From Candidatus Coprovivens sp. (GTDB lineage Bacteria > Bacillota_I > Bacilli_A > RF39 > UBA660), in contig JBJFGS010000005.1 in the NCBI GenBank assembly GCA_051892935.1, positions 1 through 26,303 on the forward strand: 26,303 nt of DNA, written 5' to 3'. Positions 2,119-7,347 of this stretch are shown here, in pieces. Below the pieces are notes generated by a model that saw nothing but the letters and a program-made list of their open reading frames with translations, searched no databases and was not told the DNA's origin. The stretch's first letter is position 1. The number at the start of each line of letters is the position of its first letter. The position numbers were made by a program, and so were the translations under genes.

Positions 2119-2140
2119 AAAAAACTGCTTATTAAGCAGC
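2119..2140 (-). terminator. rpmE intrinsic terminator
   Basis: CTGCTTA-A-TAAGCAG plus T-run, overlapping the stop codon. Confidence 0.7.
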
Positions 2141-2344
2141 TTCGTTGTTGTAACCGAATTTTTTGTTGAATTTTTCAACAGCACCAGTCTTTTTAGCTTT
2201 TCCTTGTTTTCCTGTATAGAATGGATGACATTCATTACATACTTCGATATTAAGAACTTCTTTAGTTGATTTAGTAGTAAATGTTGCACCGCATGCACAA
2301 GTTACTTTGCAATCCTTAATTTCTGGATGGATATCTTTTTTCAT
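2132..2344 (-). CDS. rpmE: 50S ribosomal protein L31 (type A, Zn-binding)
   Basis: MKKDIHP…CACG…[14 protein letters not shown]. Start moved to ATG 2344 behind GGAGAA. Confidence 0.97.
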
Positions 2345-2401
2345 TACTATTCTCCTTCCGCCATGTTTCATTTTTGAAACATAGTAATTTTCTTCGTCTA
2401 A

Positions 2402-2432
2402 TGTATTATATCACAAGAATTCAACTATTCAA
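2402..2432 (-). promoter_or_regulatory. sigma-A promoter of rpmE
   Basis: TTGAAT-16-TATAAT with TG extension (TGATATAAT, -10 at 2405-2410). Confidence 0.65.
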
Positions 2433-2458
2433 TAGTTAAATTAATTTTTTTACATCTT

Positions 2459-2992
2459 TTATGATTTTTTAAATATTGATAGTATTTTACCAACTGTAAA
2501 TACTATACTATCACTATTTTTAGTGGCAACTTCTTTAAATACCGCTTTAAATCCGACAGTACATGAAGAAATTATCGCAGTTATTGTAACTGATGTAATT
2601 GTTGAAGCTAAAGAGAAATCAAACATACTTGCTATTGCAATTGTAAGAACTGCTCCTAAACTACCACTTACTATACCACATATATCTCCAATAACATCAT
2701 TGCAAATTGATGCTACTTTTGTTGAGTTTTTTAATAATCCTATTGCTTCTTTAGCACCTTTCATTTTTTTTGATGCTTTTGCATGAAGATTTGCTTCTTT
2801 ACTAGTTAAGACTGCTACTCCTATCATATCAAATAATATTCCAATTGCTACAACTAAAATAATTATGAATACTAATATTATAGTAGGAAATGAATTAGCC
2901 ATTATAGTTGATATTCCACTGAATAATATTGATAGAATAAAAGCTAGTATAAAGATTGTGACTAACCAATTTATGTTAGTATTTTTTTTCAT
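2459..2992 (-). CDS. oapA: OLE-associated protein A (4-TM, DUF21/CNNM-like membrane protein)
   Basis: Family motifs FDMIGVAV, LHAKASKKMKGAKEAI and CNDVIGDICGIVSG (D-x3-D). Directly downstream of an OLE-like RNA. RBS AAGGAGA (3001-3007) favours ATG 2992 (177 aa). Confidence 0.9.
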   Translation of the reverse strand: MKKNTNINWLVTIFILAFILSILFSGISTIMANSFPTIILVFIIILVVAIGILFDMIGVAVLTSKEANLHAKASKKMKGAKEAIGLLKNSTKVASICNDVIGDICGIVSGSLGAVLTIAIASMFDFSLASTITSVTITAIISSCTVGFKAVFKEVATKNSDSIVFTVGKILSIFKKS

Positions 2993-3029
2993 TATATTAT
3001 TCTCCTTAATATATTTTTTCAAAAAAAAA

Positions 3030-3496
3030 ATGTAATGGTATATTATAAATTAATTTTACGGCTTTGGTCGAGTTGAATTTCTCTAATTCTTACCATCGAT
3101 TACTCTTTGGCGATTTCTCTTTAAAAGAACTAATCGAATGTTACCAGTTCGATTACTCGATTACCACTTAGTCCGCACTTCAAACCTTATAATATGTACA
3201 TCCTAGAGAATTTCTCTAACACATAGTGACTATTCTTATTCGCTTTTGCAGTCATATTTTCAATTTCTATCCCATATGACCACTCACGACATGCGCTGTT
3301 TTATCTTTACCACTGACGGGATAAAAGGAAGTATTATAACTATATGCCATTATAGTATATCCTTAAATCTTAAATCATATATTCACCCGAATCTGGGCGA
3401 GACAAGCAAATATACAAAGTGTCATTAAGCACAATTGGTAGATTTTTAGGCCCACCTTCAAATAATATTTGTGACTAGGATAATGCACCACAACAT
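3030..3496 (-). ncRNA. ole: OLE RNA (ornate, large, extremophilic), compact ~467-nt variant
   Basis: OLE-conserved strings in the expected order: CUAGUCA, UUUGAAGGUGGGCCUAAAAAUC, GCCCAG, AAUGGCAU, UGAGUGG, UGCAAAAG, AGUGCGGACUAAGUGGUAAU, UUAAAGAGAAAUCGC, GCCGUAA. The 5' end (3480-3496) pairs with the 3' end (3030-3046) at 15 of 17 positions. Internal stems at 3131-38/3148-55, 3251-57/3274-80 and 3299-3305/3320-26. Adjacent to oapA. Confidence 0.92.
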
Positions 3497-3503
3497 GTAT
3501 AGC

Positions 3504-3532
3504 ATTTTAGCAAAATTTTTATTTTTTGTCAA
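3504..3532 (-). promoter_or_regulatory. sigma-A promoter of ole-oapA
   Basis: TTGACA (3532-3527)-17 bp-TAAAAT (3509-3504) with TG extension. Predicted start 3496-3497 coincides with the 5' end of the closing helix. Confidence 0.85.
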
Positions 3533-3608
3533 ATTGAAGTAAAAATTTTTAAATATAATAAATTATATGTTGATTTTATAAAAAAATGCCTTTAAAAAAA
3601 CAAGAGTA

Positions 3609-4871
3609 CTACTCTTGTTCTGTTATTTTAACTTCTATTTGAGCTCCAACATTTCTTAACTTTTCTACTATATTTTCATATCCACGAAGTATATGATCTA
3701 TTTCATTTACTATAGTTGTTCCATCGGCTATTAATCCGGCAATTACCATAGCAGCTCCAGCCCTTAAATCTGTTGCAGTTACTTCTTCACCTTTTAGAGG
3801 AGTTGGTCCTACTATGATTGCTGTTCGATCGTTTACTCGTATGTTGGCTCCCATTTTTTGAAGATATTTTATATGTCCCATTCTATTTTCATATATAGTT
3901 TCTTCGAATATGGACATTCCATTAGCTTGGGTTAATAGAACACTCATTGGTTGTCCTAAATCCGTTGCAAACCCTGGAAATACTAGAGTTTTAACATTTA
4001 TAGCTTTGTATTCTGAAGGTTTATTAATTATTAATGAGTTATTGTCAATTTTTATGTTAACTCCCATTTCCTTTAGTTTTGATAGAAGAGCTTCAATGTG
4101 TTCTTCAATTATTCCAGATATTTTTAAATCTTTTCCAAGTAGTGCGCCTATTATTGTATAGGTTCCTGCTTCTATTCTATCTGGAATTACATCAATTACT
4201 CCTTTTCCTAGCTTTTTTACACCTTCTATTTTAATTTCACTTGTTCCAGCTCCCGATATTTTAGCTCCCATGTTATTTAATAGACTAGCTATGTTAACAA
4301 TTTCTGGTTCTTTAGCAGCATTAGAAATGTATGTGGTACCTTCTGCTTTTACTGCTGCAAGCATTATATTTATTGTTGCACCTACTGAGGCAAAATCTAA
4401 ATATATTCTAGCTCCTTTTAATTTTTCAGCTTTAAAGATATACTTATTTCCTTCAATAGTTACTTCTGCTCCAAGTTTTTTAAAGCCATTTATGTGAAAA
4501 TCAATTGGTCTAGATCCTATGTTGCAACCACCTGGGAAATATATTTCAGCATAATGAAATTTGGCTAGTAAAGCTCCCATAAAGTAATATGATGCTCGTA
4601 GTTTTTTACTTAAATTTTCTGGTACAACTTTGTTTTCAATATTTCTGGTATTAATCTTCATCGTTTCGTCTTGATATTCTACTTTTCCATTTAACAGTTC
4701 AATTATATCGATTAATGCGTTTGTATCAGAAATATTTGGAACATTATATAGTATTACTTCTTCATCAGATAGAATAGCTGCTGGAATAAGAGCAACTACG
4801 CTATTTTTAGCACCACTAATTTTGATTTCTCCAGTTAATTCTTGCTGACCATTAATTATTAGTTGTTTCAT
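3609..4871 (-). CDS. murA: UDP-N-acetylglucosamine 1-carboxyvinyltransferase (MurAB/MurZ-like)
   Basis: SGAKNS, LRASYYFMGALL, PGGCNIGSRP (catalytic Cys), PDRIEAGT, ATDLRAGAA. Confidence 0.96.
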   Translation of the reverse strand: MKQLIINGQQELTGEIKISGAKNSVVALIPAAILSDEEVILYNVPNISDTNALIDIIELLNGKVEYQDETMKINTRNIENKVVPENLSKKLRASYYFMGALLAKFHYAEIYFPGGCNIGSRPIDFHINGFKKLGAEVTIEGNKYIFKAEKLKGARIYLDFASVGATINIMLAAVKAEGTTYISNAAKEPEIVNIASLLNNMGAKISGAGTSEIKIEGVKKLGKGVIDVIPDRIEAGTYTIIGALLGKDLKISGIIEEHIEALLSKLKEMGVNIKIDNNSLIINKPSEYKAINVKTLVFPGFATDLGQPMSVLLTQANGMSIFEETIYENRMGHIKYLQKMGANIRVNDRTAIIVGPTPLKGEEVTATDLRAGAAMVIAGLIADGTTIVNEIDHILRGYENIVEKLRNVGAQIEVKITEQE

Positions 4872-4915
4872 ATTATCACACTCGTACTTCTATTCGAATA
4901 TTTCTTCTCAGTTTT

Positions 4916-4944
4916 AATATATGATTAATTAGGCCTTTTGTCAA
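4916..4944 (-). promoter_or_regulatory. sigma-A promoter of murA
   Basis: TTGACA-17-TATATT. Confidence 0.65.
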
Positions 4945-4966
4945 TTTGAAAGTATATTGTTGACAC

Positions 4967-5476
4967 TTATGATGTTAATTGGGAAATAATTTCTTTTATG
5001 AAGGATTTATATTCGATATCTTCATATTTTTCAGATGTTGATTCTAGTAAACATAATGGTGGATACATAACACACCACCAATTATTTCCCGAACCATTTC
5101 CCAAAGTTATTACTAAAGATTCATATTTACCTTCTTTATATGTTATTCCTTTGTATTCTTTTTCTGGGAAATAATTTTCTCCATAGTTTATACTATATGG
5201 TATATTATATTTATTAATTGTATTTTTTATTACTTGTTCATTATTTTTTATTATTTCTCTAGTTTCTTCTAGAGATTTTGATTCTTGAATTAATTCAAAT
5301 AAATTGTTTTCTAAGTCTTTTTTTATTAGTAATTTAGTGTTTTGATCTATTTTGTCATTACTATTAGCAATGATTCTGAATCTAATACTATCTTCTGGAA
5401 TTATTATATTTTTTTCTTTAGTTATCCACATATACATTACAATTATTATCAACATTATGTATATTATTTTTTTCAT
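4967..5476 (-). CDS. spoIIR: Stage II sporulation protein R
   Basis: IRFRIIANSN…DQ, FPEKEY…G.YESLVITLGNGSGNNWWCVMYPPLC. N-terminal signal/TM. Lies downstream of prfA-prmC as in B. subtilis. Confidence 0.95.
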   Translation of the reverse strand: MKKIIYIMLIIIVMYMWITKEKNIIIPEDSIRFRIIANSNDKIDQNTKLLIKKDLENNLFELIQESKSLEETREIIKNNEQVIKNTINKYNIPYSINYGENYFPEKEYKGITYKEGKYESLVITLGNGSGNNWWCVMYPPLCLLESTSEKYEDIEYKSFIKEIISQLTS

Positions 5477-5512
5477 AAAAAATCACCTATTTATATATAG
5501 GTGTATTTTTTT
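5477..5512 (-). terminator. Hairpin between prmC and spoIIR that contains the spoIIR Shine-Dalgarno
   Basis: Minus strand AAAAAATA-CACCTAT-atataa-ATAGGTG-ATTTTTT-ATG. The AGGTGA SD is in the 3' arm. Confidence 0.55.
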
Positions 5513-5517
5513 ACTAT

Positions 5518-6240
5518 TTATTCACTAGTTATAAATATAAATCTGTCTAGATGTTGGAGATCTTTTTTTAGATAAATGTTTGATTTTGGAAAATATTTTT
5601 TAGCAATATTAACAATATCTTGCCCTTGTTCTTCTCCTATTTCAAAAGCTATTATATATTTTGGTTCTAAGTAATTTGATGCTTGTTTTAAAATTTCTTC
5701 ATAAAAGTAAAGTCCATTGTTAGGAGCATATAAAGCAATATGAGGTTCGTTATTTTTTACTATATCCATTATTTCTTCATCTTCTCTTATATATGGAGGA
5801 TTACTTATTATACAATTATATTTATCTGAAACATTTTCAAATATGTTACTTTTTATAAATTTTATATTTGTATCATTTTCTTGAGCATTTGTTATTGCTA
5901 CTTCTAAAGCTTCTTGGGAAATATCTATTGCTGTTATATTACTATTGGGAAATAATTTTTTTAAAGTTATAGGAATACAACCACTTCCTGTTCCTATATC
6001 TAAAATCTTTAAGTTACGATTGTGAAATAATTGTTTAATTATTTCACTTGTTTTTTCAACTAGTTCTTCTGTTTCTCTTCGAGGAATTAAAACATTCTTA
6101 TTTACTTTAATTATGTTTCCATAGAAGTTGACATCACCTACTATGTATTGTACAGGTTCACCATTTTTTAATCTTTCTATTGCGGTTTCCAAGTTATCTT
6201 CTGGATGAAGATATTTTTTTAAATATTCTATTTCTTCCAT
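5518..6240 (-). CDS. prmC: Release factor glutamine methyltransferase (short N-terminus)
   Basis: GEPVQYIVG, VLIPRRETEELV, LDIGTGSG, SNPPY. Confidence 0.96.
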   Translation of the reverse strand: MEEIEYLKKYLHPEDNLETAIERLKNGEPVQYIVGDVNFYGNIIKVNKNVLIPRRETEELVEKTSEIIKQLFHNRNLKILDIGTGSGCIPITLKKLFPNSNITAIDISQEALEVAITNAQENDTNIKFIKSNIFENVSDKYNCIISNPPYIREDEEIMDIVKNNEPHIALYAPNNGLYFYEEILKQASNYLEPKYIIAFEIGEEQGQDIVNIAKKYFPKSNIYLKKDLQHLDRFIFITSE

Positions 6241-6256
6241 ATATAAACTTCTTTCT

Positions 6257-6284
6257 AAAAAAACTAATTCAAAAGAATTAGTTT
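6257..6284 (-). terminator. Terminator-like hairpin between prfA and prmC
   Basis: AAACTAATTC-tttt-GAATTAGTTT plus T-run on the minus strand. Confidence 0.55.
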
Positions 6285-6291
6285 AAATTTA

Positions 6292-7347
6292 TTATTCTCC
6301 TTTAAGTTTTCTTTGTAAATCTTCTGTAATTAATGCTTCTATTATATCATCAATAGCACCATCCATTACTCTATCTAATGTATTAGTAGTAAAACCAATA
6401 CGATGATCTGTAACACGATTTTGAGGATAGTTATAAGTTCTAATTTTTTCTGCTCTATCTCCTGTACCTATTTTACTTTTTCTTTCGTTTCCAACTTGAG
6501 CATCTTGAGCTTCTTGAGCAGCTTGATATAATCTTGCTTTTAATACTTCCATTGCTTGAGCTTTATTTTGAATTTGACTTCTTTCATTTTGACAGGTAAC
6601 AACTGTATTAGTAGGTAGATGGGTTATACGTACAGCTGATGGTGTAGTATTTACTCCTTGTCCTCCATGACCTGTTGCACAGAATGTATCTATTCTCAAA
6701 TCATTTGGATTTATTTCTATTTCAACATCTTCAACTTCTGGCATTATTAATACTGTTGCTGTTGATGTTTGAATTCGACCATTTGATTCTGTTACTGGTA
6801 TTCTTTGCACTCTGTGAGAACCTGATTCGTATTTTAATTTGGAATAGACATTTTCGCCTTTTATTTTAGCTTCTATTTGAGAAAAACCGCCTGCGGTACC
6901 TGGTTCTGAGTTAATTACTTCGATTTTCCATCCTACTTTATCTGCATAGCGAGAATACATTCTAAATAAATCGCCAGCAAAGATATTAGCTTCATCTCCT
7001 CCGGCAGCTCCTCTTATTTCCATAATAATGTCTTTATCATCATTTTCATCTTTAGGAATTAGTAATATTTCTAGTTCTTTAATTAATTCTTCTTTTTTAT
7101 TTGTTGCTTCTTCTAATTCTAGTTTAGCCATTTCCCCCATTTCAGGGTCGTCTAATAACATTTTGGCTTCTTCAATATTATTATTTATTTTTTTATATTC
7201 ATTATACTTTATATAAGTTTCTTCCAAATCTTTTTGTTCTTTTGATAATTTTTTTAGTTGATTATAATCTCCTAATATTTCTGGTTTAGATAGCTCTGTA
7301 GTTAAGTCTTCATATCTCTCTTTTATAGCTTCTAGTCTTTCAAACAT
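6292..7347 (-). CDS. prfA: Peptide chain release factor 1
   Basis: GGDEA, HRVQRIPVTE (PxT motif), GGQGVNTT, RTYNYPQNRVTDHRI. Confidence 0.98.
   Translation of the reverse strand: MFERLEAIKERYEDLTTELSKPEILGDYNQLKKLSKEQKDLEETYIKYNEYKKINNNIEEAKMLLDDPEMGEMAKLELEEATNKKEELIKELEILLIPKDENDDKDIIMEIRGAAGGDEANIFAGDLFRMYSRYADKVGWKIEVINSEPGTAGGFSQIEAKIKGENVYSKLKYESGSHRVQRIPVTESNGRIQTSTATVLIMPEVEDVEIEINPNDLRIDTFCATGHGGQGVNTTPSAVRITHLPTNTVVTCQNERSQIQNKAQAMEVLKARLYQAAQEAQDAQVGNERKSKIGTGDRAEKIRTYNYPQNRVTDHRIGFTTNTLDRVMDGAIDDIIEALITEDLQRKLKGE

Follow-up and report, generated by a model that had tools for sequence, protein, structure and literature searches.

A shortened OLE RNA without P7, P8 and the distal P9 arch in Candidatus Coprovivens, and still shorter OLE forms among related gut bacteria

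An interval on the minus strand of a 26,303-nt stretch of a Candidatus Coprovivens sp. contig (the window; JBJFGS010000005.1, positions 1–26,303) appears to encode a functional OLE RNA that is shortened in a way already published for gut bacteria of RF39. This reading comes from sequence comparison, and we give it a probability of about 90%. Short 'variant' OLE RNAs were described in RF39 and TANB77 gut bacteria by Fernando and Breaker (2024, mSphere; PMC11332333), and Candidatus Coprovivens has been placed in the order RF39 (PMC8035907). Taken singly, the locus is genuine but not novel, and adds a further copy to a short form already on record. At ~120 nt below the usual length, the window OLE lacks P7, P8 and the outer portion of P9.

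An Infernal scan of the whole window against Rfam matched RF01071 (OLE RNA) at 3019–3507 on the minus strand, flanks included (230.4 bits, E 4.4e-64, not truncated). The match spans model positions 1–616, and its score stands against a gathering cut-off of 50 bits. One OLE copy was found in the source genome (1.81 Mb, 53 contigs, 92.2% complete). The likely transcript runs from ~3497 to 3030 and is about 468 nt long. A sequence-only reading had called an OLE RNA at 3030–3496; this call lies inside the Infernal match and agrees with the likely transcript, and the comparison with RF01071 that it had named as a check gave a significant, full-model match. Its description of the interval also held. 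The only ORF of at least 40 aa inside is a 60-aa plus-strand frame (3246–3428), so that the interval is indeed ORF-poor, and the relatively high GC content is a modest local peak (0.338 for 3056–3525 versus 0.25–0.29 in overlapping neighbour windows). The strings conserved in OLE RNAs were seen in order in the Infernal alignment. The proposed end-to-end closing helix can form five pairs: the conserved 5' sequence GUGGUGCA (3484–3491, minus strand) contains GUGGU (3487–3491), the 5' strand of P1, and its partner ACCAU lies at 3035–3039.

A sigma-70-type promoter was predicted at 3504–3532 (minus strand), consisting of TTGACA, a 17-nt spacer and TAAAAT, with TG before the −10 box. It scored 11 of 12 matches, was the top site within 2300–3700 and predicts a start near 3497; in the alignment, TATAAT-like boxes of the relatives stand at an equal distance before GUGG. 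Between murA and the ole promoter stands a terminator-like hairpin at the end of murA (3599–3619; reported on the plus strand, with a T-run also after it on the minus strand). The 3' end of the RNA carries ACCAUUACAU and then a U-run, and an ORF preceded by an AAGGAG ribosome site starts ~40 nt further on. This ORF (2459–2992, minus strand, ATG at 2992, 177 aa) is, by position and homology, oapA, encoding a membrane protein. Its homologue directly follows OLE in 147 of 155 other loci, named Bacillaceae included (e.g. Lederbergia, 2e-36), which bears out the earlier placement of the RNA directly upstream of oapA. Pfam gave a weak CNNM match under its cut-off (E 1.4e-4), as expected because a relation between OapA and MpfA has been reported (PMC11332333). 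NCBIfam assigned the ORF to no family, and the lone match was a chance-level one to cardiolipin synthase (E 0.0096).

The gene context may be noted separately. Flanked by murA and rpmE, ole and oapA make up a small, separately promoted unit here (window 2132–7347). This arrangement differs from the isoprenoid-type cluster commonly reported for ole, which in H. halodurans is long and, according to a review (PMC12265935), yields a single polycistronic RNA. The genes spoIIR, prmC and prfA are upstream of ole–oapA on the same strand. An L31-Firmicutes ribosomal-protein leader (RF03156, 38.6 bits) was found at window 2352–2384 (minus strand), directly before rpmE (2132–2371, minus strand), with its own promoter-like site at 2432–2405.

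Helix names P4 to P9 follow our own mapping of the text of three papers onto the Rfam structure line (PMC12265935, PMC12286853 and PMC11332333). In this mapping, P4 denotes the hairpin with an A-rich loop, P5/P5.1 the one with the GCCCAG loop and P6/P6.1 the one with the AAUGGCAU loop; the pair of hairpins that has been lost corresponds to P7 and P8, and P9 is the long stem, which bears the palindromic kissing loop L9.3. Past the AAUGGCAU hairpin and before UGAGUGG, Infernal placed only 8 and 12 nt against model stretches of 44 and 36 positions, and at the P9 tip only 4 nt against 50 model positions. In the Rfam structure line, the first missing block corresponds to two hairpins, and the second to the distal long stem with a GGCC loop. 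The full set of canonical helices, with P7, P8 and an extended P9, is therefore not present in the window OLE; that set defines the full-length form only, as variants too are counted as members of the family. Natural shortening with loss of the central P7/P8 region, as first proposed, was thus confirmed by Infernal and by the alignment.

The location of the loss was only partly as proposed. The sequence-only reading had placed most of it between AAUGGCAU and UGAGUGG, where 60 of the ~127 missing model positions fall; 46 more belong to distal P9 and ~11 to a small hairpin at model positions 424–435. Measured against full-length relatives of the order, the loss is ~72 nt in the P7/P8 zone and ~44 nt in P9. 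Between AAUGGCAU and GUGAGUGG the window RNA measures 64 nt, versus 91–155 nt in 29 full-length relatives of the order, and the P9 stretch is 36 nt versus 77–85 nt in the same relatives; the stretch after P9 is unchanged (77 nt versus 71–80 nt). By these sequence distances, the shortening is roughly 60% P7/P8 and 40% distal P9, and the earlier reading saw the first part only. The hairpin at model positions 424–435 was also absent from the one P7/P8-bearing relative aligned by Infernal, and the unchanged next stretch suggests as much for the full-length relatives; it therefore lies outside this reduction. In place of P7/P8 there is an A-rich linker (3290–3319, minus strand) that varies in length and sequence and holds GAUAAAA (3299–3305). 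The truncated P9 (3240–3289, minus strand) keeps its base and the GGGAU/UGAAA motif; the distal ~46 nt and the palindromic apical loop are gone.

Equally short RNAs proved common. Within the genus, an OLE match of 479–491 nt was found in 20 of 24 other species, and the 4 genomes without a match are 65–90% complete. In the order sample, 96 of 151 genomes carried OLE, with the source genome counted: 66 matches were 564–620 nt long, 9 were 533–555 nt, 19 were 480–516 nt (window included) and 2 were 378–381 nt. The 480–516 nt forms occurred in 18 further species of the order. No OLE match came from 16 further families, 15 of which belong to other orders of the class, with one genome searched in each. 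A Bacillota-wide sample consisted of 120 species genomes chosen by an exact conserved 16-mer and is biased to carriers of that 16-mer; in 93 of these 120 the OLE RNA was measurable between end anchors, with a median core of 570 nt and 12 cores of 470 nt or less. The window core is 436 nt. The titles of the 12 short cores include uncultured Bacilli bacterium, Firmicutes bacterium CAG:582 and Candidatus Coprovivens sp., with Bacillota, Bacilli as NCBI lineage. Two of the Coprovivens records share their OLE and OapA with two genomes of the genus. The novelty first attributed to a short OLE RNA was therefore lost, since such RNAs are common in the genus, the order and the Bacillota sample and are already published for RF39 and TANB77.

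Genome streamlining had also been offered as the cause of the shortening. Across the 96 genomes of the order, the Spearman rho between OLE length and genome size was 0.06, a purely descriptive value because related genomes are not independent, and within the order this explanation is unsupported. Median genome size was 1.1 Mb with full-length OLE, 1.2 Mb with the 480–516 nt forms and 1.6 Mb in this genus. Although the genomes in this sample of the order are only 0.8–1.6 Mb, 66 of 96 OLE RNAs are full length, so that the short form is typical of a subclade rather than of the RF39-type order at large.

Relatives with sequence (79) were classed by counts of alignment columns; the set is biased, being made up of the 30 best-scoring long forms, all order-sample forms of 555 nt or less, and 21 genus copies. 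Both elements were kept in 29, only P9 was short in 5, only P7/P8 were lost in 6, both were lost in 37, and 2 were very short. P9 length was graded in the short class, at 34–57 nt.

We then compared the window OLE with the published forms. In PMC11332333, variant 1, mostly from TANB77, has P7, P8 and P9 in shortened form and in many cases no OapB site on P13, and variant 2, common in RF39, lacks P7 and P8 entirely; RF39 and TANB77 are largely without OapB and OapC. A literature search found the terms 'variant 2' and OLE RNA together only in that paper. The window OLE is like variant 2 in that P7/P8 are absent, oapA is adjacent, the same nucleotides are conserved elsewhere, the host is an uncultured gut bacterium with relatives in RF39, and OapB and OapC were not found. 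The fit is not exact, as the variant 2 passages in the text of PMC11332333 are silent on P9, which is truncated here. With variant 1 the window OLE shares the shortened P9 and a reduced-genome gut host without OapB and OapC. It differs in two respects: P7/P8 are shortened in variant 1 but absent here, and variant 1 often lacks the OapB-binding end of P13, whereas the window P13 keeps its GUAA loop and one bulge. Full-length OLE RNAs, such as those of H. halodurans and Clostridium acetobutylicum (577 nt, cryo-EM dimer; PMC12286853), belong to the same covariance-model family with the same order of conserved blocks. They have the P4, P5.1 and P6.1 dimer loops, the 3' domain and the oapA partner in common with the window OLE, and differ by ~120 nt of extra length, which includes the P7, P8 and distal P9 kissing loop that are missing here.

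Could the window RNA belong to a distinct, unnamed short class and not to variant 2? This possibility draws on the co-occurrence of complete P7/P8 loss, as in variant 2, and truncation of P9, as in variant 1, on the retention of OapB-type GNRA hairpins that are often absent from variant 1, on the four separable states among the 79 relatives (29/5/6/37), on the silence of the variant 2 text about P9, and on the way in which the published classes were drawn, namely by binning bit scores from the authors' own model and not by architecture (PMC11332333). However, the RF39 hits behind the variant 2 consensus share a score bin into which sequences like the window's probably fall. That bin spans 235–310 bits with the authors' model, and the 230.4 bits obtained here with Rfam are on a different scale. 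In addition, the published variant 2 figure may already show a short P9, and the graded P9 length amounts to variation within the described trend. We consider a separate class unlikely and keep to a short OLE RNA of the published kind.

We aligned 51 short-type OLE RNAs: 21 from the genus, 18 from the order and 12 from the wider sample. RNAalifold predicted 106 pairs on this alignment, 69 of them with compensatory change, and recovered P4, P5, P6, the short P9, P10, the 3' domain and a long-range helix UAUNCUAG/CUAGNGUG. P1 can pair in most of the 51 sequences and shows limited covariation. In the window, the long-range helix has UAUCCUAG (3475–3482, minus strand) as its 5' strand and CUAGGAUG (3199–3206) as the partner. 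This helix, formed by alignment columns 28–35 with 359–366, encloses the entire 5' domain, and its pair 31:363 is CG in 22 sequences, UA in 15, GC in 13 and AU in 1. The P4 hairpin (3437–3456, minus strand) with its A-rich loop CCUAAAAAUC is kept according to alignment and covariation; CUAAAAAU of P4 is invariant in 51 of 51 sequences, and the A-rich loop is the first published dimer centre (PMC12265935). The long P5/P5.1 hairpin (3373–3419, minus strand; loop CGCCCAG) is also kept and has many compensatory pairs. Both GCC in the P5.1 loop and the complementary GGC in the P6.1 loop are invariant throughout the 51 sequences. The P6/P6.1 hairpin occupies 3320–3369 (minus strand), with the loop AAUGGCAU at 3344–3351 and a 3' strand that includes UUUUAUC (3320–3326). 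Paired cells made up 98.2% of this hairpin, with 87 compensatory cells, and 10 of its 14 pairs changed on both sides; none of 500 shuffles paired as well, and the pairing beat all slid controls. The kept P9 stem showed covariation too. P10 is a small hairpin, GAGAAAUUCUC (3206–3216, minus strand), whose pair 350:356 is AU in 30 sequences and GC in 21. The 3' domain (domain 2; 3040–3196, minus strand) is complete: model positions 436–595 aligned without large gaps and with covariation. It contains GGACUAAGUGGUAAUC, P13 (3132–3154; GUAA loop, one bulge) and P14.1 (3093–3110; GUAA loop).

The strong P6 pairing bears directly on the hairpin that had been proposed for the centre of the RNA. In that model, the usually multibranched central region collapses into one functional 28-nt hairpin (3299–3326) that replaces P7/P8. 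Seven bases on each side, UUUUAUC (3320–3326) and GAUAAAA (3299–3305), are indeed complementary in this one sequence. Across the 51 sequences, however, 65.0% of cells were paired versus 64.0% in shuffles, 131 of 500 shuffles did equally well, and covariation equalled the shuffle mean. The 5' arm, UUUUAUC, is taken up as the 3' strand of P6 and is followed by the variable A-rich linker. Moreover, the local fold of 3240–3345 was no better than that of shuffles (z −0.31) and did not include this hairpin. This linker aligns poorly, and a shifted small hairpin is possible in some species. We regard the collapse into a conserved central hairpin as highly improbable.

The stretch between P4 and P5 deserves a separate remark. 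The Rfam consensus has an AUCGAU palindrome there (GGGCACAUCGAUGAAG); the corresponding stretch at 3420–3436 (minus strand; alignment columns 76–97) is poorly matched and variable in the short type, and reads GUGCUUAAUGACAC here. A review has placed an OapA-binding site close to this stretch, at P4a (PMC12265935). Median OapA length was 172–179 aa in the three P7/P8-less classes (very short included) versus 194–195 aa in the two classes that keep P7/P8 (loci L001–L051 and L172–L199); starts were called mechanically, and start-codon choice may explain part of this difference. The RNA–OapA interface may have changed along with the shorter OapA.

Four dimer centres have been described for OLE RNA: the A-rich P4 loops, two P5.1–P6.1 kissing pairs and the P9 palindromic kissing loop (PMC12265935). 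Lyon and Breaker noted that P7 and P8 are not dimer contacts, perhaps explaining their natural loss (PMC12265935), and Kretsch et al. listed L7 among the loops of one bridge (PMC12286853). Of the parts lost here, the distal P9 arch alone is named as a dimer contact in the text of both structure papers. We examined the apical P9 loops predicted by RNAfold. A G/C-containing 4-nt palindrome was present in 32 of 35 long-P9 relatives versus 1 of 42 short-P9 relatives. The loop palindromes of the long-P9 relatives (L022–L051 and L178–L182) were GGCC (18), AGCU (8), GUAC (4), CUAG (2), GAUC (1) and UGCA (1). GGCC, AGCU and GAUC are palindromes named in the cryo-EM paper (PMC12286853). GUAC, CUAG and UGCA are self-complementary too, and this additional covariation fits a kissing loop. 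The short P9 loop contains AAUU, which we considered as a replacement for the kissing palindrome and rejected; it is A/U only and comes from the conserved UUGAAA motif. We expect that the window RNA keeps three of the four dimer contacts and is without the P9 arch. Among the relatives, the kissing partners P5.1 and P6.1 were either kept together or lost together.

Partner proteins were searched for in the source genome, which is 92.2% complete. No L7Ae-family gene (the family of OapC/YbxF) was detected in it, and the B. subtilis control was detected. An OapB query from Lederbergia citrea, confirmed against PDB 7k9b 'OLE-associated protein B' (E 2e-32), had no match in this genome at E up to 1. 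A genome search for the KOW domain found only L24, located between L14 and L5, and a 190-aa frame that we take to be NusG from its length alone. No CorC_HlyC domain, which is borne by MpfA-type transporters, was found in this genome either, and bS21 was present. The GUAA (GNRA) loops of P13 and P14.1 and the P13 bulge are kept, though no OapB was found.

Contigs with 0–3 mismatches from four metatranscriptomic libraries of four studies fall within 3040–3483. Contig depth was very high at 3110–3217, a universally conserved block, and there the contigs come from many organisms. As to expression of the OLE locus, such contigs are a weak hint, as strand, ends and level are invisible in them and DNA may be included. 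The flanks at 3488–3900 and most of oapA had no near-identical cover in these libraries, which is not evidence on the transcript ends.

By analogy with Halalkalibacterium halodurans, the window RNA would bind the membrane protein OapA and would sit at the membrane as a stress-response particle; membrane localisation via OapA and stress phenotypes are known only for that species (PMC12265935). Dimerisation would probably still proceed via the P4 and P5.1/P6.1 contacts, without the P9 kissing loop. Because the OapB and L7Ae-family (OapC) genes were not found, the particle is perhaps reduced to the RNA and OapA, possibly with bS21. That the locus is instead a functionless, decaying OLE remnant in a reduced genome, or an assembly artefact, is the least probable alternative of all. 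In its favour are the absence of two stems and an arch, the failure to find OapB and OapC, and the 4 of 24 same-genus genomes without an OLE match. Against it, 20 independent genus assemblies and 18 species outside the genus show the same architecture and length, the kept helices carry compensatory changes, oapA is intact, the promoter is near consensus and RNA-library contigs cover the OLE RNA.

To follow the history of the losses, a maximum-likelihood tree was built quickly from the adjacent OapA proteins; it represents a single small protein, includes four long-branch rows and is not a species tree. All but one of the P7/P8-less rows fell in one group of 45 (SH-aLRT 89), which also contains L050, a long-branch row that keeps P7/P8. 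The minimum number of changes on this tree was at least 3 for the P7/P8 state and at least 7 for P9 length. Three rows were exceptional for P7/P8: L050, L178 and the long-branch L181.

Beyond the window RNA, very short OLE matches of 378–381 nt (134–139 bits) were obtained, two from genomes of the order (L172:1001–1378 and L173:1001–1381, both plus strand) and a third from a pattern scan (L223:2515–2892, minus strand). The scan of genome contigs returned 10 stretches, of which 3 were OLE and 7 were chance matches in unrelated phyla; 30 relatives of genome G103 yielded no further very short form. In the Infernal alignment, model positions 74–277 (P5, P6, P7 and P8) were reduced to 12 nt in these RNAs and P9 still aligned. 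They keep P4, the whole 3' domain and a long P9 hairpin with a GAUC loop. An intact oapA of 172–174 aa follows OLE at all three loci, and a TTGACA box lies upstream at two of them. There is almost no covariation among the three RNAs because they are 95% identical. On the OapA tree, the very short forms nest within the P7/P8-less group. Their Rfam scores lie well below the 235-bit floor of the published survey, on a scale that differs from that of the authors' model; if that model scores them similarly, they may be unreported. The 378–381 nt form is rarer and is a more interesting lead than the window OLE.

Taken jointly, these forms can be read as a natural OLE deletion series in RF39-type gut bacteria that dissects the published dimer, a tentative reading that we hold at clearly less than even odds. 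In this series, P7/P8 may have been lost essentially once, in one subclade, and the P9 arch with its palindromic loop may have been lost repeatedly while the P4 and P5.1/P6.1 contacts stayed. The 378–381 nt RNAs may have taken the opposite course, with P5–P8 lost and the long P9 kept.

The window RNA of ~468 nt with its own OapA, apparently without OapB and OapC, offers a construct for testing the need for the P9 kissing loop and for P7/P8 in folding, in dimerisation and in binding to OapA. Comparison with its relatives indicates that pieces of the 5' domain have been lost in separable steps, and that the loss is not tied to genome size in the order. If all forms work, the A-rich P4 loop would be the sole dimer contact common to every form, and the irreducible OLE particle would consist of P1–P4, a P9 stem and the 3' domain, with OapA alone.
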